Positions 30,870 through 63,950 of a stretch of DNA of 64,000 nt are shown here, in pieces. Location of the stretch: the sequence record MF402939. One strand, written 5' to 3'. The notes under the pieces are model-generated. The model was not told the origin of the DNA and searched no databases. It saw nothing but the letters and a program-made list of their open reading frames with translations. Positions within the stretch are counted from its first letter, which is position 1. Every line of letters starts with the position of its first letter. This DNA comes from Escherichia phage OSYSP. A program made the translations under genes and the position numbers.

Positions 30870-32657
30870 TTAGGTAAGGCGTTGAACTGTTACTCTTAAT
30901 CTCGGTAGGAAAATAGCTGCAGCCTCATCAGCGTGAATAATTACGCCCAATTCAGCATTACCATTTCCTAGATTTTTAATAGTATAAATATATCCGTTTC
31001 TTCTAAATGTTAACTCATCAGGTCTACTTGCCCAAGTTTGAGTATAGCTGTATGCAGTAGTGGAGTGATAAGGGACTAAGTATCCAGGAGGTAAGGTTAA
31101 TATTTGATGGAATATTCCATCACCTTCCGTGTAACTATGCTGTCTTCTTCCTTGTACTTGCCAAGCAACACCACCATATGTGCGTATAGCTCCTCCTGCG
31201 GTATTAATATTCCCCATGATAACTTCAGTAGTTAATATTACTGTTGCGTTAGCGTTAGGCAATCCTAATCCTATGGTGGCCAAAGCTCTATAGTAGTTAC
31301 CTGCTCCAGGATATGTTGGAGTTATATCATCGCCAACGTAAGTGCTAGCAACATTATTAGGAAATAGTCTTAAGGGTACAGTACTAGGACTCCACACAGC
31401 TCCATGCTCATTACCTATAGTGTTATTACTTGAGTTTACGTACCATTGCTTACCCGCTCCGAATTTGTAAATACTAATTTGAGACTTAGCCCCTCCATAA
31501 TCTACGGGAGACCATAAAGATCCATTACTAGATCCTACAATTTCACAGCGCGCAGTAGTATCCCCGAAGGCTCCAGTGTACGCTGCGTTATTTCCAATGT
31601 ACTCCATATCTGGCCTATAGCCTAAGTTACCAAAAGCATTTTGGTTGATAAACTTATATCCAGTATTTGGTAAACTAACCCCTTTTATAGTAAAATTAGA
31701 TGGAGTTATAAGTATATCTGACCCAGTAAATGGATTACCGGATACGCCCATATTACCATTAGAGTACCTTAGATTAAGTACATACCAAATAACTTTGGTA
31801 GGTGTAATATTATAACCATCCTGCACATATACTTTCTTAGCGGCCTGTGCTGCTAGATTAGATGTTGAACCTTTACATATATAAACCTTATCAGGGTAAG
31901 TAGGAGATTGGTACAATAAGTTAACATTATCGGGTACTGTGCCTTTTTTACCTACGTAACTTCGTATATTAGAGTTACAAACGTAAAAACAATTATGCCC
32001 TCTATGGGCGGCCCCTATAGGAGCTTGCCAGTTAGGATGCCAGTAGTCAGCATTACCACCGTCTATAGGTACTGTAGACGCTCCCGCTGGAAATCCTGCT
32101 AAAGTCCATGCCCTACCTATAGCCTCACCAGCATATGCTCCTCCCGGCCTATATAAATTAAACCCGGAGGCTTGAGATATAGTACCTCCTGTACCTTGCC
32201 TAGCAATTGATTCTTCATGGCCTAAACCAGAGTTATAAATATAGGTGCCATGTGCTAAACTATTACCTGATGCAAAAGCTGACGTAAGACCTACTTCTGC
32301 ACCTGCCCTACCAATAGGCGGATCTTCAAAAAATGTAGTAAATTGACCAACTTGAGATTGAGTACCATTAAGAAAAGCCCTATGAGTACCATTAATCTCA
32401 ATAGCAGTTAGTATAACTCTACCTGGGTCATTGGATTTAATATTTATTATGTCAGAAGGCATCTGACATACAAAAAACCCATTTCCGGCATTACCTAGCC
32501 CAGCCTCGTAAGTACCATCAACTAGGACAAATGGCATATCACTATGAAAAATACTATTGGCATTTGGACTATAGTGACGATTAATGTCACCCCCAGATTC
32601 AGTATTTAAAGATAGTACGGTCTTACCATCGCTATACTTTCCAGCGAAAAAACCCAT
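30870..32657 (-). CDS. Receptor-binding tail protein (T5 pb5-like)
   Basis: 595 aa; Gly/Asn/Tyr-rich; divergent from and adjacent to a lipoprotein gene exactly as the T5 oad-llp pair. Confidence 0.7.
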
Positions 32658-32682
32658 ATAATCTCCTATTATAAAAATGTAT

Positions 32683-32711
32683 TTGCTTTTATCCCTCTAT
32701 TTTGCTATAAT
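32683..32711 (+). promoter_or_regulatory. Strong early promoter for llp (TTGCTT, 17 bp spacer, TATAAT, then AGACTCATAAATTAGA)
   Basis: Hexamers and start region read directly; strong resemblance to T5 PN25 architecture as remembered. Confidence 0.65.
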
Positions 32712-32742
32712 AGACTCATAAATTAGAAATGGAGAGATAAAT

Positions 32743-33009
32743 ATGAAAAAGTTTGTGATTGCACTAGTTGCCGCAGTTATGTTGTCTGGTTGTGCACCTG
32801 CCCCCAAACCATTTTGTACGGGATTTGTAAAATCTTTTGGCGGTGCGGGAGAGGAGCATTACGGCCTCAAGGTTCAAAAAGTTCGTATTAAGGGAGATCG
32901 CTTTCCAGTAGTACAGCTCCGTACTAAGTTTGGGTGGTGGGATCTCAGTCAGTTTGACCTTAAATACGGTGATTGTAAATTTAAACTAGAGCAATCTAAC
33001 TACCTGTAA
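32743..33009 (+). CDS. llp: Lytic-conversion lipoprotein Llp-like (receptor-blocking, superinfection exclusion)
   Basis: Signal peptide plus lipobox LSGC; 88 aa; divergent neighbour of the receptor-binding protein gene. Confidence 0.75.
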   Translation: MKKFVIALVAAVMLSGCAPAPKPFCTGFVKSFGGAGEEHYGLKVQKVRIKGDRFPVVQLRTKFGWWDLSQFDLKYGDCKFKLEQSNYL

Positions 33010-33122
33010 TTAGTATAAAGCAAAAAGACATCCAAGTAAACTAAATTTTTTATTTCTTGGACGGTATACTGGCAGAAACCACTATATAAGAAAAGTAGAA
33101 GTCCTTCTAGGAAGTCGCAAGC

Positions 33123-33314
33123 ATGGTTGGTTATGCACAAACTATAAAATATTTTAAATACCACACTTATAGGAGCATGAAAGATATGTCAAACAAAAGA
33201 AAGAGTAGGCGCGGAGAAGTGTACGATAGTTGGATTAATAGTTTTGGATTCGGAACTATCCTATTCTTTATTTTCGTAGGTTTTTGGTTAGCAGCTATGG
33301 CGGGGTGGATTTAA
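33123..33314 (+). CDS. Small membrane protein (63 aa)
   Basis: C-terminal hydrophobic helix ILFFIFVGFWLAAMAGWI; AGGAAG RBS; first gene of a four-gene overlapping operon. Confidence 0.5.
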   Translation: MVGYAQTIKYFKYHTYRSMKDMSNKRKSRRGEVYDSWINSFGFGTILFFIFVGFWLAAMAGWI

Positions 33315-33421
33315 TGGAATGGGTAATTATTGCGTTGCTAGGGATTGTGATTATTGGGCAATGTATTTTAGATAATCACTTAGCTAGAATTGAAACTTTA
33401 CTAACGGAGAAACGTAAATGA
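33314..33421 (+). CDS. Small membrane protein (35 aa)
   Basis: ATG overlaps previous stop (TAATG); hydrophobic N-terminus WVIIALLGIVIIG; not in the ORF track because under 60 aa. Confidence 0.4.
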   Translation: MEWVIIALLGIVIIGQCILDNHLARIETLLTEKRK

Positions 33422-33612
33422 TGGAAGTAGTAGCTACACTAATAGTAATACTAGTCTGGGCAACTTTCATTGTTTCTTATAACGCGTATGTTCGCCTAAA
33501 AACTCTAGAGGCCCAGGTAAAGCAGCAACAATTTGCACTAGAAAAATTAGTAGAGCTTCAACGCTGTGATAGTACCCGTATTCTGCAAATTGAGAGGGAA
33601 TTAGATGTTTAG
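33418..33612 (+). CDS. Small membrane protein (64 aa)
   Basis: ATG overlaps previous stop (ATGA); N-terminal TM helix followed by coiled-coil segment. Confidence 0.5.
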   Translation: MMEVVATLIVILVWATFIVSYNAYVRLKTLEAQVKQQQFALEKLVELQRCDSTRILQIERELDV

Positions 33613-33850
33613 TATTATAATTGCTTTTATTATCGGGATACTCACGGGAGTTTTCGGAATGACTGCGGCAATCAACAAGCATCGTAAATATATTGCGGAA
33701 GTATCGCGGGAGATTGCGGAAAGGGAGCGGAAGTTTGATGAGAAACGTGCGGAGTTCGAACGAGAGTGGTCGGACGGTTCTCGGGCGTCGCGGAAGAGAT
33801 TCCGTGAGTTCAGACCAGAATACAGGTTTGATGACCCTTCTATGCGCTAA
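33605..33850 (+). CDS. Small membrane protein with charged C-terminal tail (81 aa)
   Basis: GAGAGGG RBS; N-terminal TM helix IIIAFIIGILTGVFGM; Arg/Glu-rich C-terminus. Confidence 0.5.
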   Translation: MFSIIIAFIIGILTGVFGMTAAINKHRKYIAEVSREIAERERKFDEKRAEFEREWSDGSRASRKRFREFRPEYRFDDPSMR

Positions 33851-34002
33851 TTTGACTTTTGCCAATTTCTTTGGATTACGTACGCGTGGGTGTGTCCAGT
33901 GGCCCCCCAGATGAGAATGAGTCTCATTACCGCCTGGTACTTAGCAGGCTAATAGTCCCGGCATGTTATCATTACACACCGGGACTATTTCAACTTTAAT
34001 TA

Positions 34003-34737
34003 CTACGCAACTTTTAATTTCTCAATATATTGTTGCGGGCTGCAACTATATTCTGCGCGTTCTTCTTCGGTCATACCTTCCCAACATAATTGCAGGCGGT
34101 CGGCTAGGAACTGATAATCATTATCATCCTCAAGAGATTCATCGATAAAGGTTTCACCTATCAATGTAACCCCAATCGATAGAATATCGTTAACGGCTTG
34201 TGCGTCCAGCGTTTTAAATCCGTATGATGCCGCCGCTGATAGCACGCCTTTATGATCATCAATCATCGTGAAATCAGCGTTCGGATATAATTGTTTAAAT
34301 AACTCAAAGTAATGGCTTTTATAAATAGCGTCTTTGCTGTGGTATATTTCGCTAACTTTATCAGCCTCAAAATATTTGTGTAGTGTATCGCGGGAAAATA
34401 CACGGATATTACTATCCCCACGCCCTCGCAATCCTTGTTTACGCAAATAATAATAATCCGACTTGCTCATCAGTCGAGCGGTGCAAATAATGTTTAATGT
34501 ATTTGCGTCATTCATGCACTGGCGCATATATGTAACAAGGGGCAATAAAGTATCTTGCATTATTAAATCATGTTTGCAGGCTTCATTTTTATACTTATTT
34601 AAATCTAAATTGCCCTCGCTATCAAAGCAAGGCGCTACACGATGGAAAGAATTAATGATAGTGCCGTCCAGATCCCAAATCATGACGCGGGAAATATGCG
34701 GGAAATTACGGGTAATATTCATTTTAACTTGATTCAT
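34003..34737 (-). CDS. dmp: HAD-family 5'-deoxynucleotidase (T5 Dmp-like)
   Basis: HAD motif I IWDLDGTI near N-terminus; start chosen at MNQVK (GGAGAA RBS 9 nt upstream) giving 244 aa; the track ORF extends to 34779. Confidence 0.65.
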   Translation of the reverse strand: MNQVKMNITRNFPHISRVMIWDLDGTIINSFHRVAPCFDSEGNLDLNKYKNEACKHDLIMQDTLLPLVTYMRQCMNDANTLNIICTARLMSKSDYYYLRKQGLRGRGDSNIRVFSRDTLHKYFEADKVSEIYHSKDAIYKSHYFELFKQLYPNADFTMIDDHKGVLSAAASYGFKTLDAQAVNDILSIGVTLIGETFIDESLEDDNDYQFLADRLQLCWEGMTEEERAEYSCSPQQYIEKLKVA

Positions 34738-34817
34738 TTTGTTACGTTCTCCATTAAAGGGATTTAGTTTATCCAGCATTGCCCGCTATTTATCAGCGGG
34801 CAATAATAAATCAACTA

Positions 34818-54231: not shown

Positions 54232-54645
54232 TTAAACTAGTTCGACATGACCGCCATCATAGGTACCACGTTTTATTTCATCGTGATAATCTCCCGAAGC
54301 ATTCCAATCAGCACCAAAGCGAAGTTTAATGCCTAGTTCTTTACCCGCTTGTTCAAAAGCCTTTTTAACTGCCCAAAATGCTTCTAAATCATTCCAATCA
54401 ATTTTGCCATTAATGTATGGAGCAAAATCAAGGGCATCCCCAGTAATATGCTTGCTTTTACTAGGATCTTTTAAAAATGAAGTACCATTAGCAATATTCT
54501 GGGCACTTTGTGCTACTGTACGAATACCCTGTACGATCGTGAAATCATAAGGAGATAGTTCTAAAGCCCTACGAGCTACTTTTTGTAGTTCGGGCTTAAC
54601 GGTAGCTAATTGTTTTTCACTATTTTTACCAAATTTAAAACTCAT
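54232..54645 (-). CDS. Endolysin, L-alanyl-D-glutamate peptidase type
   Basis: 137 aa as for T5 endolysin; zinc-peptidase-like H...D...H residues (HITGDALDF, HVE); directly downstream of holin. Confidence 0.75.
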   Translation of the reverse strand: MSFKFGKNSEKQLATVKPELQKVARRALELSPYDFTIVQGIRTVAQSAQNIANGTSFLKDPSKSKHITGDALDFAPYINGKIDWNDLEAFWAVKKAFEQAGKELGIKLRFGADWNASGDYHDEIKRGTYDGGHVELV

Positions 54646-55325
54646 ATTGATCTACCTAAAGATCTCTGTTGTGGAGAACAGAGCTTTGCTAAATATTCCT
54701 TGAACTGTTCAGAATCAGCTGTATCTACCGGATTATCTTTCCAAGCAATACCAATGTACCCAGCATAGATATTTTTTAGATTGAAGTATGGACAAGTGTA
54801 TATGTAATTAAAAGTAACGTTTTTAAACGCAGGTATATTTAACCCCATATATTTATTTACTCTTACACTTAAATCCGATGCGTAGTTAAAGCCCTCTAAA
54901 TGACGTCTGTATAATTCAGACGTTTTATTTACCGCTTTATCGGCCAAGTCAGCCCTATCTAATTGCGCATTACTTTCCCATGCAATAATATTGGAATAAT
55001 CATTGATAGCATCTGGTTTATACTTGACTACAAAAACAGCATCTGCACCCGTCTGAGAGAAGAGAACCATGCTCTTTTCCCCCGCCACATTAGGGAAGTT
55101 ATCTATCCTCTGGGTTTGTAAATCCTGTAAAACTGCAGACGTGGAAAAGGTTTTTAAGAATGACATCACTTCACTAGTATTACTAACAAATAAGAAAATA
55201 ATGACAGCAACTAAGATAGTTAGCAGACGTTTAAGAAGCGATGCTGGGTCTTTCGCTTCTTGGAGCAGTACTGTTAATAATTGTAAGAACTTTTCCAATT
55301 TGTAACCTCCTCTAACCAGTACCAT
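54642..55325 (-). CDS. Holin (putative)
   Basis: 227 aa with one strong TM helix LLTILVAVIIFLFV; ATGA overlap with the endolysin gene. Confidence 0.6.
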   Translation of the reverse strand: MVLVRGGYKLEKFLQLLTVLLQEAKDPASLLKRLLTILVAVIIFLFVSNTSEVMSFLKTFSTSAVLQDLQTQRIDNFPNVAGEKSMVLFSQTGADAVFVVKYKPDAINDYSNIIAWESNAQLDRADLADKAVNKTSELYRRHLEGFNYASDLSVRVNKYMGLNIPAFKNVTFNYIYTCPYFNLKNIYAGYIGIAWKDNPVDTADSEQFKEYLAKLCSPQQRSLGRSI

Positions 55326-56821: not shown

Positions 56822-57174
56822 TAATCTTTCCTATTTGTAATGGGTGGATAGTAAACTAAGCAACGTTTTTCTTGTAAATCTTGACGATAGAAGCAAACCA
56901 TACCAGTCAGTCGTGAAATGTAAGAGTAAACTGCTTCCTCGCATTTTGCTTTTGCATTCCAATCTTTGTAAGGTACAACAACTACTACGCCATCTTCGCC
57001 ATTTGTAGCTAATTTCTTTTCGAATTTGAAATCAAAGCTACACGGCTGAAGTCCTTTAGGCCAGTCAACATGGGCTTGCTTTAACTCATGTGAAGGCTCT
57101 GGTTTTATTTCTTCTGCACAGCCTGTGATTGTGATTGCGGCTGCGAGCAGTACTCCAAGTTTCCAGTTAAACAT
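56821..57174 (-). CDS. Outer-membrane lipoprotein, candidate o-spanin
   Basis: Signal peptide with lipobox ITGC; 117 aa; 5' end overlaps a TM/coiled-coil protein gene. Confidence 0.5.
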   Translation of the reverse strand: MFNWKLGVLLAAAITITGCAEEIKPEPSHELKQAHVDWPKGLQPCSFDFKFEKKLATNGEDGVVVVVPYKDWNAKAKCEEAVYSYISRLTGMVCFYRQDLQEKRCLVYYPPITNRKD

Positions 57175-57548
57175 GCTAATCTTTCCTCGAACTCCTTACT
57201 CTGCTTTTTAGCAATTAATGTAACCAATCCAGGCTTTGCAGCTATAATGTCTTGACGACTAAGTGCTTTATCAAGCTGACTAATTTTCTTGTCTAGATCT
57301 GCTTGGGAAACATTATTCATTGTGAAATACTGATTCATACGAGTTTCACGAAGTTCACTCTCAGCTTTCACATTATTAAGGGAAGTCTCTAGGGACGTAA
57401 TCTTTTTAGTAGCTACTGCAAGATCACCTGCTAGAGTCTCAACCTTATTTACTAAGTGATAAGCACCGAATCCGATACCTATCGCAAGACCAGCTCCCAG
57501 GATATACATCTTATTATCCCAAACTAAGTCTACAAACCATTTCCACAT
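57105..57548 (-). CDS. TM plus coiled-coil protein, candidate i-spanin
   Basis: N-terminal TM helix YILGAGLAIGIGFGAY then long coiled coil. Confidence 0.5.
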   Translation of the reverse strand: MWKWFVDLVWDNKMYILGAGLAIGIGFGAYHLVNKVETLAGDLAVATKKITSLETSLNNVKAESELRETRMNQYFTMNNVSQADLDKKISQLDKALSRQDIIAAKPGLVTLIAKKQSKEFEERLACLTGNLEYCSQPQSQSQAVQKK

Positions 57549-58045
57549 CAGCCTGTACTCGCAAACTCACCGTGGAGTTCTTTGAGTTTGGTATCTCGCC
57601 ATTCTATGGCCTCTTCCAAACTCTTAAGTGTTTTCGAAACTTGCTTACCATGTTTAGTGATTCTTACTTGGTAAGTCCCATTTGTTTTTCTATGAATATT
57701 TTTAACGCCTAAATGGTTATCGCTTCTTACTTTTTGATTACAAGCGTTATCAGATCTTGTAGCAGGTCTTAGATTCTCAAACCTATCATTAGTTGAGTCT
57801 TTATCCTTATGATCAACTATTTCTGGCCATTCTCCAGTATGCCATGCATAGATTAATCTATGTGTACCTATAGCTAGAGAACCATTATATAGCTCAACTA
57901 CTCTATGTCCTGTACTTTGTCTAGATCCTGCTACTGTTCCGGCGAATATCTTATTAAAGTGTTCGTCCCCTTCCCTGGGTTTCCAGATAAGATTACCATC
58001 ATCTCGGTAATCGAACATTCTTCTTAGCTCTTCCTTACTGATCAT
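57548..58045 (-). CDS. HNH homing endonuclease with AP2-like DNA-binding domain
   Basis: HRLIYAWHTGEWPEIVDHKD...NLRPATRSDN (HNH core) followed by NGTYQVRITKHGKQV (AP2-like). Confidence 0.65.
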   Translation of the reverse strand: MISKEELRRMFDYRDDGNLIWKPREGDEHFNKIFAGTVAGSRQSTGHRVVELYNGSLAIGTHRLIYAWHTGEWPEIVDHKDKDSTNDRFENLRPATRSDNACNQKVRSDNHLGVKNIHRKTNGTYQVRITKHGKQVSKTLKSLEEAIEWRDTKLKELHGEFASTG

Positions 58046-62457: not shown

Positions 62458-62534
62458 TGGTAGTTAGTAGTGGATTTGAACCACTGTAGTCGCTCCGTAT
62501 GAAGGAGGTGCATAACCACTCTGCCAACTAACTA
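62458..62534 (-). tRNA. tRNA, anticodon CAU (Met or Ile2)
   Basis: 7-bp acceptor stem TAGTTAG/CTAACTA, T-loop GGTTCAAATCC, anticodon loop TTCATAC, encoded CCA. Confidence 0.75.
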
Positions 62535-62629
62535 TTATGTTTTACTAAGCTAAGTAAGTATTCTTTATACTCTTTAGACCAATTAGCTTTTTTAAACTTT
62601 CCTGGACGCATAGTCTTAATTCCTAGATT

Positions 62630-62707
62630 TGGTACTCCGGGAGGGATTTAAACCCCCGATCTCTCGGTTATCAGCCGAGTGCTTTAGATCGCTAAGCTAC
62701 CGAAGCA
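62630..62707 (-). tRNA. tRNA-Ile (anticodon GAU)
   Basis: Anticodon stem-loop CTCGG-CTGATAA-CCGAG, T-loop GGGTTTAAATCCC, 3' CCA. Confidence 0.7.
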
Positions 62708-62914
62708 TTAACATTTTACAGCAGAACGTTTGCCATTTCTAGGTGCACCTGGAAGTCGTGCACGTTCTGCCATTCTTCGCTTAATCTTTGAAATATTTTC
62801 TAGTGTTTGTTCTTCAGGCTTAATACCTGAAACACTACACCACTGATTACCATCCCATGCGGTAATGATCATAACACCATTACTCATGATCTTTTCTGTG
62901 AAAGTAATCCTCAT
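62708..62914 (-). CDS. Hypothetical small protein between tRNA genes
   Basis: Start moved to MRITFTE to abut the upstream stop; the track ORF extends to 62935. Confidence 0.35.
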   Translation of the reverse strand: MRITFTEKIMSNGVMIITAWDGNQWCSVSGIKPEEQTLENISKIKRRMAERARLPGAPRNGKRSAVKC

Positions 62915-63207
62915 TATAGCAACTCGTCTAAGCAAGAGGTATATTTAAGTTTACCATCTTTATCTACTTTAATTTCAACTTCCGCTCGTGGTACTTGACG
63001 AACTACACCATGAATCATCTTATAGTTAATAGACTTAGACGGTTCATAATCTTTTGGGAAGACTTGCTTAACCGTTACTACCTTGTACCCATCACGCGGT
63101 GTTAACACAACAACTTGATCACCTTCTTTGATTTTCCAAGAGTTAGGAAATTCATAGGTATAGCGTTGACCACCCGTTTGGAATATAACAGAAAGATAAC
63201 GTTTCAT
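62914..63207 (-). CDS. Hypothetical small protein between tRNA genes (97 aa)
   Basis: ORF in tRNA cluster. Confidence 0.4.
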   Translation of the reverse strand: MKRYLSVIFQTGGQRYTYEFPNSWKIKEGDQVVVLTPRDGYKVVTVKQVFPKDYEPSKSINYKMIHGVVRQVPRAEVEIKVDKDGKLKYTSCLDELL

Positions 63208-63280
63208 TTGGTTTCCCTCTCATTAATTTATATAAATATTATAGCAATAAATAAGAGAGAAAGCAAATGAATTTTTAAAT

Positions 63281-63355
63281 TTGGTGCTCCCACCAGGAAT
63301 CGAACCCGGTTCAGATGCTTACAAGGCAACTGCATCGCCAGCAATGCTTTAGGAG
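63281..63355 (-). tRNA. tRNA, probably Thr (anticodon UGU, tentative)
   Basis: Acceptor stem GCTCCTA/TGGGAGC, T-arm CCGGG-TTCGATT-CCTGG, anticodon loop CTTGTAA, 3' CCA. Confidence 0.65.
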
Positions 63356-63523
63356 CGATAATCCCGTTATTTCAACGGGATTTCTTTTTCAAATACAGGG
63401 GATTTATCTGACATTACTGTCATTGCCAACTGCTGAAGAAACTCGAAAGTAAAGGCAACACGTTCTTCACCAATCTCTACTTCTACACGTTTCTTTTGTT
63501 TATCAATCTTTACTTTTAGGTTG

Positions 63524-63775
63524 TCAGCCATTAGAGGGTACAGTACTGGTAGTTGGCAATACTACAGATGGAGCAACAGTGTTTAAATGCTTTCTCCAGT
63601 CTAGGTTAAATTGTTTTCGAAACTCTTCATAAGGTTCTTCTGGATAAAAGCTAAAACCTCCTTTCTCATCATTCAAGATAACAGAGCCGTCAGTTTGTTC
63701 ATATGCTCGATATGTTTCTCCAATAATGATAACTCGCTTATCAGTACTTTTATTACGAAACTCAAAAACGTGCAT
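63524..63775 (-). CDS. Hypothetical small protein between tRNA genes (83 aa)
   Basis: ORF in tRNA cluster. Confidence 0.4.
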   Translation of the reverse strand: MHVFEFRNKSTDKRVIIIGETYRAYEQTDGSVILNDEKGGFSFYPEEPYEEFRKQFNLDWRKHLNTVAPSVVLPTTSTVPSNG

Positions 63776-63791
63776 AGTGTTTCCTTAAAGT

Positions 63792-63867
63792 TGGAGCGGC
63801 TAGAGGGAATCGAACCCTACTCAGCGAGGCTTGGAAGGCCTGCGACACAACCCGTGTGCTTAACCGC
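63792..63867 (-). tRNA. tRNA, probably Gly (anticodon UCC, tentative)
   Basis: Acceptor stem GCGGTTA/TAGCCGC, T-loop GGTTCGATTCC, anticodon loop CTTCCAA. Confidence 0.6.
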
Positions 63868-63874
63868 GATTATT

Positions 63875-63950
63875 TGGCTGGAGAAGGAGGAATCGAACCT
63901 ACCATTAACGGAGTCAAAGGCCGTTGTGCTAACCATTACACTACTCTCCA
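63875..63950 (-). tRNA. tRNA, probably Gln (anticodon UUG, tentative)
   Basis: Acceptor stem TGGAGAG/TTCTCCA, T-loop GGTTCGATTCC, anticodon loop CTTTGAC, 3' CCA. Confidence 0.6.

Follow-up and report, generated by a model that had tools for sequence, protein, structure and literature searches.

The window analysed here, a 64,000-nucleotide stretch from Escherichia phage OSYSP (MF402939), belongs to a T5-like phage (Tequintavirus) with a BF23-type receptor module. The gene llp, which encodes a receptor-blocking lipoprotein of the BF23/BtuB type, occupies positions 32743-33009 on the + strand, and its 88 aa product has a lipobox (LSGC) at residues 14-17, shows 100% amino-acid identity to BF23 Llp, matches PHROG 1119 ('Cor superinfection exclusion protein', E 1.8e-26), and scores above the cut-off for Pfam LPAM_1. 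Directly 3' of llp on the same strand are four overlapping genes, as a sequence-only reading of this DNA had proposed: ORF1 (33186-33314), ORF2 (33314-33421), ORF3 (33418-33612), and ORF4 (33605-33850), with products of 42, 35, 64, and 81 aa, respectively. Over the full length of the profiles, ORF1 matches PHROG 8596 (E 3e-32), ORF2 PHROG 6369 (E 2.8e-26), ORF3 PHROG 5851 (E 2.8e-35), and ORF4 PHROG 6447 'membrane protein' (E 2.7e-47). The genes are orthologues of T5.159-T5.162 of phage T5 (AY543070) and Orf1-4 of BF23 (DQ097178), and amino-acid identity of the products to their T5 and BF23 counterparts is 83-100%. Order, position, lengths, and overlaps are all shared, and there is no essential difference between the sets. 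What distinguishes this window is the BF23-type (BtuB) cassette of receptor-binding protein (RBP) and llp upstream, and an ORF4 tail of the 'EFRPEYRFDDPSMR' variant. Orthologues are already annotated in T5, BF23, DT571/2, Baret, and Bas32, and the arrangement, in which ORF1-4 share the strand of llp and are flanked by the llp/RBP module on one side and the terminal repeat (dmp) on the other, is identical in these phages and in chee24. Annotations of T5 and BF23 dating from the mid-2000s, ~20 years ago, already list the gene set as hypothetical single-transmembrane (TM) proteins, and T5 describes each of T5.159-T5.162 as 'contains single transmembrane domain'.

The gene model for ORF1 required correction. 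Lengths of 63, 35, 64, and 81 aa had been proposed for the four products, of which the last three stand and the first becomes 42 aa when the conserved start is used. The 63-aa reading (33123-33314) is a mechanical open reading frame only. We judged the start in an alignment of 29 distinct relatives, in many of which the ATG at 33123 is replaced by ACG and among which the stretch 33123-33185 contains frame-breaking indels of 1 nt and 10 nt. Because this ATG is not conserved and the indels break the frame, we rejected the 63-aa start, which the BF23 annotation gives to Orf1 without support. The conserved start is the ATG at 33186, with a conserved AGGAG ahead of it at 33171-33175, and similarity to T5 begins only at ~33150, just upstream of this ribosome-binding site. 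A product of 42 aa agrees with the annotations of T5 (T5.159), DT571/2, and Baret, and PHROG 8596 is of this length too. For ORF3, some relatives have ATA as first codon, and a second ATG at 33421 may serve as the start in place of 33418.

The junctions between the genes had all been described as ATGA or TAATG, which holds for ORF1/ORF2 (TAATG, 33312-33316, a 1-nt overlap) and ORF2/ORF3 (ATGA, 33418-33421, a 4-nt overlap) and fails for ORF3/ORF4, where the overlap is 8 nt (ATGTTTAG, 33605-33612). The 1-, 4-, and 8-nt overlaps are retained in 31/34, 22/25, and 25/25 loci, respectively, and in loci that lack ORF3 a 1-nt overlap joins ORF2 to ORF4 in all nine cases (9/9). The four genes are putatively translationally coupled. 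Pooled pN/pS is 0.20 for ORF1, 0.27 for ORF2, 0.46 for ORF3, and 0.42 for ORF4, compared with 0.25 for llp, with variation concentrated at third codon positions, and the four genes are under purifying selection. A lack of conservation in related phages had been named as evidence that would speak against the genes; they are conserved, with ORF1 present in 446 phage records. ORF1-4 are thus almost certainly real protein-coding genes. Their very short length (35-81 aa) and the absence of annotation for some of them in several GenBank records might suggest frames left open by chance in A+T-rich spacer DNA, but this reading is refuted by purifying selection, by starts, stops, Shine-Dalgarno sequences, and overlaps that are conserved across Tequintavirus and Epseptimavirus, and by a dedicated PHROG family for each ORF. 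We rejected a 132-aa antisense ORF (33467-33865, - strand) as an alternative gene; of 35 relatives, 33 have it in broken or truncated form.

Upstream of llp, a probable early promoter on the + strand (32683-32711) can be read from the sequence: TTGCTT (32683-32688), a 17-nt spacer, and TGcTATAAT, with the -10 element at 32706-32711. The BF23 record (DQ097178) places the -35/-10 signals of llp at the corresponding position, and the sequence matches the T5 promoter consensus TTGCTT-N17-18-TATAATA as quoted in the AKFV33 record; a generic sigma-70 scan did not return it. In the interval between llp and ORF1, a sequence scan found neither a terminator-like site nor an independent promoter, and RNA folding showed no significant structure (z = +0.6). 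Because no terminator is detectable between them, ORF1-4 probably share one transcription unit with llp. Between ORF4 and the convergent dmp gene (34003-34779, - strand), where the terminal repeat begins or just within it, lies a strong hairpin (33951-33989; MFE -24.7 kcal/mol, z = -5.8) that none of 200 shuffled sequences matched in folding. One compensatory change, C:G to A:T, occurs in this hairpin in chee24 and Stitch, and in T5 and DT571/2 the same place is occupied by a hairpin whose sequence differs. The hairpin is likely the end of the llp-ORF4 transcription unit. RNA-seq of the Tequintavirus Bas33 at 20 min post infection (PMC13250531 Dataset S1) covers counterparts with the same lengths and overlaps, and puts an extra 156-bp ORF and the ORF3 homologue in the TPM range of the llp homologue (~130-460 for the three), whereas late structural genes reach thousands. 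In these data, which are not strand-specific, the 108- and 129-bp genes are near zero and the ORF4 homologue is low. These low counts could be a counting artefact or could reflect real heterogeneity.

A hydrophobic helix had been proposed for each protein, with coiled-coil or charged tails added to the last two, and both proposals were borne out. The best 19-aa Kyte-Doolittle windows score 2.1-2.45 across the four proteins, and among relatives 18-aa windows reach at least 2.0 in every homologue scored. ORF1 is predicted to be a tail-anchored, N-in protein in which a basic cytoplasmic N-terminal tail (MSNKRKSRRGEVYDSW) precedes a C-terminal TM helix, with five K/R ahead of the helix and none behind it. 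ORF2 has an N-terminal TM helix and a 15-aa charged tail, and ORF3 an N-terminal TM helix followed by a heptad-repeat coiled-coil tail in which 73% of a/d positions are L/I/V/M. A comparison of ORF2 with ORF3 for paralogy gave a probability of 37%, and phage NBSal005 carries a 51-aa tandem paralogue of ORF2. In ORF4, the N-terminal TM helix is continuous with a long helix that is rich in charge (18 K/R and 14 D/E; net charge +4). AlphaFold2 models this protein as one continuous helix from residue 2 to 69 (mean pLDDT 74), and its conserved core comprises residues 1-67, past which the tail is variable and disordered, with at least four variants. When an HMM profile of ORF4 was run against 1.84 billion representative proteins, it matched T5-like phages only; no distant relatives outside T5-like phages came from a search of 5.8 billion proteins, and comparison of the profile with PDB sequences gave no match above threshold.

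ORF1-4 are very probably single-pass inner-membrane proteins. Positively charged residues lie on the N side only of the ORF1 helix and on the C side only of the ORF2-4 helices, and by the positive-inside rule alone it is likely that all the soluble parts of the four proteins face the cytoplasm. ORF2-4 would then be N-out/C-in, with almost nothing left in the periplasm. This predicted topology would make direct action in the periplasm or at the outer membrane unlikely.

Within the T5 lineage, ORF1 and ORF4 are near-universal, while ORF3, found in 311 phage records, is missing from ~30% of records, and ORF3 and ORF4 are now and then truncated among relatives. Because single genes can be lost, the module is probably accessory, and the evidence is for a near-universal set of individually dispensable genes confined to Markadamsvirinae. 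Klebsiella T5-like phages have, at the same position, two non-homologous ORFs with an N-terminal TM helix and a coiled coil; homology of ORF3 or ORF4 to these positional analogues was considered and rejected, at probabilities of 14% and 1%. In Proteus T5-like phages, non-membrane ORFs occupy the position. The cluster is also kept alongside different receptor modules. The Llp of T5 is not homologous to the Llp of this window, yet T5 keeps ORF1-4, and Shivani, in which T5-like llp is absent according to its authors (PMC4342426), carries all four ORFs. Therefore, the cluster is not receptor-specific. To the existing annotations, the present analysis adds the 42-aa gene model for ORF1, evidence for a near-universal Markadamsvirinae module of individually dispensable genes that is decoupled from the receptor/Llp cassette, and a predicted cytoplasmic orientation for all four proteins.

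The sequence-only reading had suggested membrane remodelling, superinfection exclusion, or DNA-entry control as possible roles. The explanation that we favour, with low confidence, is an inner-membrane complex of accessory proteins that acts independently of the receptor. In this model, transcription would start at the T5-type early promoter (32683-32711), run through llp and ORF1-4, and end at the hairpin (33951-33989), and the products of ORF1-4 would insert in the inner membrane with soluble parts in the cytoplasm. There they might assemble, by weak inference, as a small hetero-oligomeric complex on the cytoplasmic face of the membrane, which would work as an accessory regardless of the outer-membrane receptor used. 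The complex would condition the inner membrane during infection so that it resists damage or the secondary entry of phage DNA, and would in this way complement the block that Llp imposes at the outer membrane. A function in exclusion or protection is, taken separately, possible rather than probable. More speculative is the specific proposal that an undescribed mini-protein complex closes or guards the inner-membrane DNA-entry route, as a second layer of superinfection control or membrane resealing beside Llp, with the non-homologous TM and coiled-coil proteins of the Klebsiella phages filling the same slot.

T4 Imm, HK97 gp15, and P22 SieA are small phage inner-membrane exclusion proteins that are accessory rather than essential, and some of them are early. 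Their likeness to ORF1-4 is a functional analogy only, with no sequence similarity detected. To our knowledge, inner-membrane exclusion proteins such as T4 Imm and HK97 gp15 are single proteins and not four-gene sets, whereas ORF1-4 are four coupled genes, joined in some relatives by a fifth, and the helical tails of their products are predicted to be cytoplasmic. It is not obvious that a block to entry would need coiled coils on that side of the membrane, a point against the exclusion reading. Searches of PHROG, Pfam, NCBIfam, and PADLOC, and of PDB with the ORF4 profile, revealed no homology of ORF1-4 to characterised exclusion, lysis, or defence-related proteins, and nothing in PADLOC-DB matched at E <= 1. 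Although T5 is a classical model phage, our full-text literature search found no mention of T5.159-T5.162 or T5p157/158 and no functional experiment on them; neither the paper on the BF23 genome nor that on the Llp structure takes up the ORFs 3' of llp, and the HIDEN-SEQ preprint, where T5 is a challenge phage in plaque assays only, contains no essentiality data for T5-like phages. At ~670 bp, the module is a compact and tractable target for studying inner-membrane events in T5 infection. If ORF1-4 do control DNA entry or membrane integrity, they would fill a gap in the model of T5 infection; otherwise, they are an ordinary accessory gene cluster.

The most probable of the alternatives, although we consider it unlikely, is that ORF1-4 act on a machine of the host inner membrane, modulating it by mimicry of, or intercalation into, complexes of bitopic proteins with a TM helix and a coiled coil. 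Candidates for such a machine are FtsQLB of the divisome, ZapG/YhcB, and LapA/B of envelope biogenesis. Like ORF3 and ORF4, the proteins FtsB/DivIC, FtsL, ZapG/YhcB, and LapA have an N-terminal TM helix followed by a long helix, and matches at this level of architecture recur for both ORFs: ORF3 to FtsB/DivIC (PF04977; E 0.07, 13.4 bits with a cut-off of 28.9), and ORF4 to LapA_dom (PF06305; 22.4 bits, cut-off 28), ZapG-like (PF06295; 15.0 bits, cut-off 33.5), and FtsL (NF049847; 15.4 bits, cut-off 50). However, every one of these matches is below the curated cut-off, and no named family in Pfam or NCBIfam was matched above threshold by any of the four proteins. The coiled coils of FtsB and FtsL are periplasmic, whereas the tails of the ORFs are predicted to be cytoplasmic, so that the predicted orientation of ORF3 and ORF4 is opposite to that of FtsB and FtsL. 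Direct homology of ORF3 to FtsB/DivIC was rejected, with an hhalign probability of 1.8% against E. coli FtsB.

It is also unlikely, and somewhat more so, that ORF1-4 serve as inner-membrane tethers for phage DNA or for the machinery of replication or packaging. A precedent is p16.7 of phi29, an early protein with an N-terminal TM helix, a coiled coil, and a DNA-binding tail. The tails of ORF1-4 are all predicted to be cytoplasmic, the tail of ORF1 is strongly basic (KRKSRR), and the excess of K/R in the ORF4 tail points in the same direction. Membrane association reported for T5 first-step-transfer DNA and protein A1 (bioRxiv 10.1101/866236) also favours a tether. In contrast, ORF1-4 contain no recognisable DNA-binding domain, PHROG and Pfam searches showed no similarity to p16.7-like families, and the loss of ORF3 from ~30% of relatives and the occasional truncation of ORF4 count against this role.

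A role in lysis, with ORF1-4 as accessories of lysis timing (antiholins or holin modulators) or as an unconventional spanin-like set, is improbable. A small size, a single TM helix, and a charged tail are typical features of holins and antiholins, and tight gene overlaps occur in many lysis cassettes; spanins and holins resemble ORF1-4 as small membrane proteins from overlapping phage genes. However, T5-like phages have been described with a complete lysis cassette (PMC4342426, PMC6658699), and in this window the endolysin (54235-54645) and the annotated holin homologue (54645-55298) are ~21 kb from ORF1-4 and not adjacent to them, with an Rz-like spanin homologue, 93.5% identical to that of chee24, at ~57108-57554 on the - strand. 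Because holin, endolysin, and spanin are located elsewhere, we rejected the idea of a lysis cassette. PHROG and Pfam gave no holin family matches for ORF1-4, which have no predicted periplasmic domain, are too short, and include no lipoprotein partner. In spanins, the coiled coil is periplasmic and its membrane anchor is N-in/C-out. ORF3 does combine a TM helix with a coiled coil, but its charge predicts a C-in orientation and its tail is only ~40 aa.

A receptor-specific partnership with Llp, in which ORF1-4 would help its export or its action on BtuB/FhuA, is disfavoured and very improbable. The four genes are directly 3' of llp with no terminator detected between, and Llp/Cor lipoproteins and ORF1-4 are small envelope proteins of one phage from a probable shared transcription unit. 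Llp/Cor proteins have a lipobox and a signal-peptidase II site, whereas ORF1-4 have neither and are not homologous to them: a lipobox signal peptide and similarity to PHROG 1119/T5 Llp were found for llp only, and the motif [LVI][ASTVI][GAS]C is absent from ORF1-4. Expressed alone, Llp blocks FhuA (PMC9586334), which counts against a need for helpers. Unlike Llp, the four proteins are predicted to be in the inner membrane facing the cytoplasm, with no periplasmic parts, and do not co-vary with receptor type. The boundary of receptor-module recombination lies upstream of ORF1, Shivani retains the cluster, and the T5 counterparts are 83-97% identical to ORF1-4 despite a non-homologous Llp and receptor-binding protein.

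The four overlapping plus-strand mini-genes downstream of llp, the gene for the receptor-blocking lipoprotein, are, judged by sequence, orthologues of T5.159, T5.160, T5.161, and T5.162 and of BF23 Orf1-4 (DQ097178). In the T5 record (AY543070), these genes encode proteins of 42, 35, 64, and 81 aa, each annotated 'contains single transmembrane domain', and DT571/2, Baret, and Bas32/IrisVonRoten carry matching annotation. All four ORFs match PHROG families over their full length, with E-values of 3e-26 to 3e-47: ORF1 matches 8596 (42 positions), ORF2 6369 (35), ORF3 5851 (64), and ORF4 6447 (81), the last labelled 'membrane protein'. The sequence-only reading, which proposed four overlapping membrane-protein genes downstream of llp, was right at the level of the genes, and the ORFs and their overlaps are present in the window. 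Its 63-aa ORF1 (33123-33314) begins too far upstream. When 29 distinct upstream regions are aligned, many relatives have ACG in place of the ATG at 33123, frame-breaking indels of 1 nt and 10 nt interrupt 33123-33185, and T5 and Epseptimavirus are unrelated to the window here until ~33150. What relatives do conserve is the AGGAG at 33171-33175 and the start codon ATG at 33186. Therefore, ORF1 spans 33186-33314 on the plus strand and encodes 42 aa. The BF23 record also annotates ORF1 with the unconserved 63-aa start. The proposed ATGA or TAATG junctions hold for ORF1/ORF2 (TAATG, 33312-33316) and ORF2/ORF3 (ATGA, 33418-33421), but not for ORF3/ORF4, which share an 8-nt overlap, ATGTTTAG (33605-33612). 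Some relatives have ATA as the first ORF3 codon, so this gene may begin at its second ATG (33421).

ORF1-4 are conserved, coupled genes for single-TM mini-proteins. Pooled pN/pS values, from 23-31 distinct homologous sequences for each ORF, are 0.20 for ORF1, 0.27 for ORF2, 0.46 for ORF3, and 0.42 for ORF4, with 0.25 for llp, and the third codon position is the most variable. Against Epseptimavirus homologues, dS ranges from ~0.5 to >1.8, being saturated in one ORF2 comparison, and dN from 0.13 to 0.51. The overlap geometry is also kept, at 1 nt in 31 of 34 loci, 4 nt in 22 of 25, and 8 nt in 25 of 25; in the nine loci without ORF3, ORF2 abuts ORF4 with a 1-nt overlap. The 132-aa antisense ORF (33467-33865, minus strand) overlapping ORF3 and ORF4 is not a gene: in-frame stops or truncation disrupt it in 33 of 35 relatives, and the most variable codon position would be its first.

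The window derives from a T5-like siphophage genome (Demerecviridae, Markadamsvirinae, Tequintavirus). By megablast, 1.5 kb around ORF1-4 matches 295 phage records, the best at 94.8% identity in the chee24 group, under annotations of receptor-binding protein (RBP), Cor/Llp-type protein, hypothetical proteins, right terminal repeat, and deoxynucleoside-5'-monophosphatase (Dmp). Conservation in related phages had been named beforehand as a test of the operon, and tblastn against 50,697 phage records found ORF1 in 446 and ORF3 in 311. A DNA search found ORF4 in 445 records. Set against the ~439 records with Dmp at at least 80% identity, the ORF1 and ORF4 counts indicate that nearly all Escherichia and Salmonella T5-like phages (Tequintavirus, Epseptimavirus) carry these two genes. 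ORF3 is absent from ~30% and truncated to 55 aa in NBSal005, and in a few genomes ORF4 ends at a premature stop or carries an internal deletion. Between ORF1 and ORF2, NBSal005 carries a fifth gene (locus L010, 2555-2710) for a 51-aa tandem paralogue of ORF2 with the same MEWVII... start and ...RIETLLEERK end and a longer helix; Bas33 apparently has a fifth gene there too (bas33_0190). For ORF4, neither a search of 5.8 billion proteins nor a profile search against 1.84 billion cluster representatives found anything outside the T5-like lineage. The former returned 81 hits, those with a named source being phage proteins or from phage-sized contigs (the long ones 95-149 kb), and the latter five, all already in the T5-like set. 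In Klebsiella T5-like phages, the equivalent position between RBP and dmp holds two ORFs, 74 and 151 aa long and in the same relative orientation, each encoding an N-terminal transmembrane helix followed by a coiled coil. These are positional analogues of ORF2-4 with no homology to them detectable by hhalign (14%, 13%, and 1%), and one such phage, vB_Kpl_K7_rec25 (L036 4353-5036), has no llp-like lipoprotein. A Proteus relative instead has soluble-looking ORFs at this position.

As had been proposed, each of the four proteins contains one strong hydrophobic segment, with best 19-aa Kyte-Doolittle means of 2.13-2.45, and 18-aa means are at least 2.0 in all homologues scored. No lipobox occurs in any of them. 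In ORF1, a basic N-tail (5 K/R) precedes a helix that ends the protein, whereas ORF2-4 place the helix at the very start, with 0 K/R before it and 2.5-4.2 K/R within the next 15 residues. By the positive-inside rule, ORF1 would be N-in and tail-anchored and ORF2-4 N-out/C-in, so that all soluble parts would be cytoplasmic and almost none periplasmic. The ORF3 tail shows a heptad pattern. For ORF4, the prediction is a single unbroken helix spanning residues 2-69 (mean pLDDT 74), followed by a disordered end. Residues 1-67 form a conserved core, and the last ~14 residues, which occur in at least four unrelated versions, are evidently replaceable; shorter versions accompany a homing-endonuclease gene inserted just downstream. 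The 72-aa variants have a different short tail, consensus-like ...KIDGKS, with versions in Shivani and mar003J3, where an HNH homing-endonuclease gene lies right behind and overlaps the ORF4 end (L035 2388-3090 and L008 1775-2477, respectively). Several ORF4 relatives in one alignment (A1: P0020, P0069, P0073, P0072, P0074) have in-frame deletions of exactly seven residues, or one heptad, in the charged helix or the TM, and one has a 4-residue insertion.

The local order is RBP (595 aa; 30870-32657, minus), llp (32743-33009, plus), the four small ORFs, a hairpin, and dmp (34003-34779, minus), the first gene of the terminal repeat. The llp product carries the lipobox LSGC and matches the receptor-blocking lipoprotein of BF23 at 100% identity. 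The RBP-llp block (~30870-33150) is a swapped module of BF23/BtuB type, inside which similarity to T5 stops. That similarity returns at ~33150, directly before the ribosome-binding site of ORF1. T5-type phages, which use FhuA, keep ORF1-4 at 83-97% identity with an Llp that is non-homologous to the BF23 type, and Shivani, described by its authors as lacking a T5-like llp (PMC4342426), has all four ORFs, with homing endonucleases on both flanks. Together, these comparisons place the cluster in the conserved backbone, not in the swappable receptor cassette, and a receptor-specific role is unlikely.

Upstream of llp, TTGCTT-N17-TGcTATAAT at 32683-32711 matches the T5 promoter consensus and corresponds to the annotated llp promoter position in BF23. 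Neither a terminator-like site nor any unusual RNA structure (z = +0.6) occurs in the 176 nt that separate llp from ORF1. A strong hairpin (33951-33989; -24.7 kcal/mol, z = -5.8) lies between ORF4 and dmp, which converge, and is located where the terminal repeat starts or just within it; chee24 and Stitch preserve this hairpin by a compensatory C:G to A:T change, and T5 and DT571/2 replace it with one of other sequence at the equivalent place. The most economical reading is a single unit of promoter, llp, ORF1-4, and hairpin. Llp is 'expressed early during infection' according to the title of Decker et al. 1994 (cited in PMC9586334 and PMC4342426), and with a single unit ORF1-4 would be expressed early as well. 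For the Tequintavirus Bas33, RNA-seq from a library that was not strand-specific gives TPM in two replicates 20 min after infection (PMC13250531, Dataset S1), with equivalents assigned on identical gene lengths and overlaps rather than on sequence. Counts along the presumed operon are very uneven: 219/127 for the presumed llp (bas33_0192, 267 bp), 0.8/1.0 for ORF1 (bas33_0191, 129 bp), 162/137 for the extra ORF (bas33_0190, 156 bp), 0.5/1.2 for ORF2 (bas33_0189, 108 bp), 462/408 for ORF3 (bas33_0188, 195 bp), and 22/13 for ORF4 (bas33_0187, 246 bp). The presumed RBP gene (bas33_0193, 1788 bp) has 252/162, and values for late structural genes run into the thousands. The 108- and 129-bp genes, both flanked by well-covered neighbours, probably owe their near-zero counts to faulty read assignment on such short genes. 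The region's top sigma-70-like match (33590-33618, TTGAGA-17-TATTAT, 10/12), at the ORF3 end and overlapping the ORF4 start, may be due to chance, since such matches are no more numerous than in shuffled sequence.

ORF1-4 occur in a single lineage only, each is dispensable on its own, and the set does not depend on the receptor module. They would be co-transcribed early with llp, in coupled amounts, and would sit in the inner membrane with their tails in the cytoplasm; the coupling suggests that they probably act together. The favoured but tentative guess is a receptor-independent accessory complex that would shield the inner membrane of an infected cell from damage or from entry of secondary DNA. 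This guess fits co-expression with Llp, dispensability, and conservation across receptor types; the DNA-ejection machinery of these phages is conserved. Modulation of host inner-membrane machines is unlikely. Searches of Pfam, NCBIfam, PADLOC, and PDB sequences gave only sub-threshold matches, to the bitopic 'TM + coiled-coil' proteins DivIC, FtsL, ZapG-like, and LapA_dom, which reflect shared architecture, not shared ancestry, and the ORF3 profile matches E. coli FtsB with an hhalign probability of 1.8%. Tethering of phage DNA or the replisome to the membrane, by analogy with phi29 p16.7, seems distinctly unlikely. An accessory role in lysis timing is improbable. As a lysis cassette the cluster was rejected, with homologues of the endolysin, holin, and Rz-like spanin annotated in the chee24 early region sited elsewhere in the window, all on the minus strand (54235-54645, 100%; 54645-55298, 95%; ~57108-57554, 93.5%), and T5-like genome announcements describe a complete holin/endolysin/spanin set (PMC4342426, PMC6658699). 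A helper function for Llp, whose gene is adjacent and exchanged for a non-homologous one in T5-type phages, is very improbable, and the notion that ORF1-4 are not genes, set beside their third-position variability and retained overlaps, is next to impossible. The remaining probability falls to something else. ORF1-4 have stood annotated in the T5 and BF23 records for some twenty years and give no sign here of an unusual mechanism; they make up a small and clearly delimited module of a classical model phage.

The terminal repeat would start near 33893 by homology with the T5 annotation and near 33986 by that of chee24. From 34003 to 64000, the window passes from the late region through one repeat copy, with dmp, directly into the early region, which holds the lysis gene homologues and tRNAs (62458-63950). 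This arrangement indicates an assembly with a single collapsed terminal repeat, or one that is circularly permuted.
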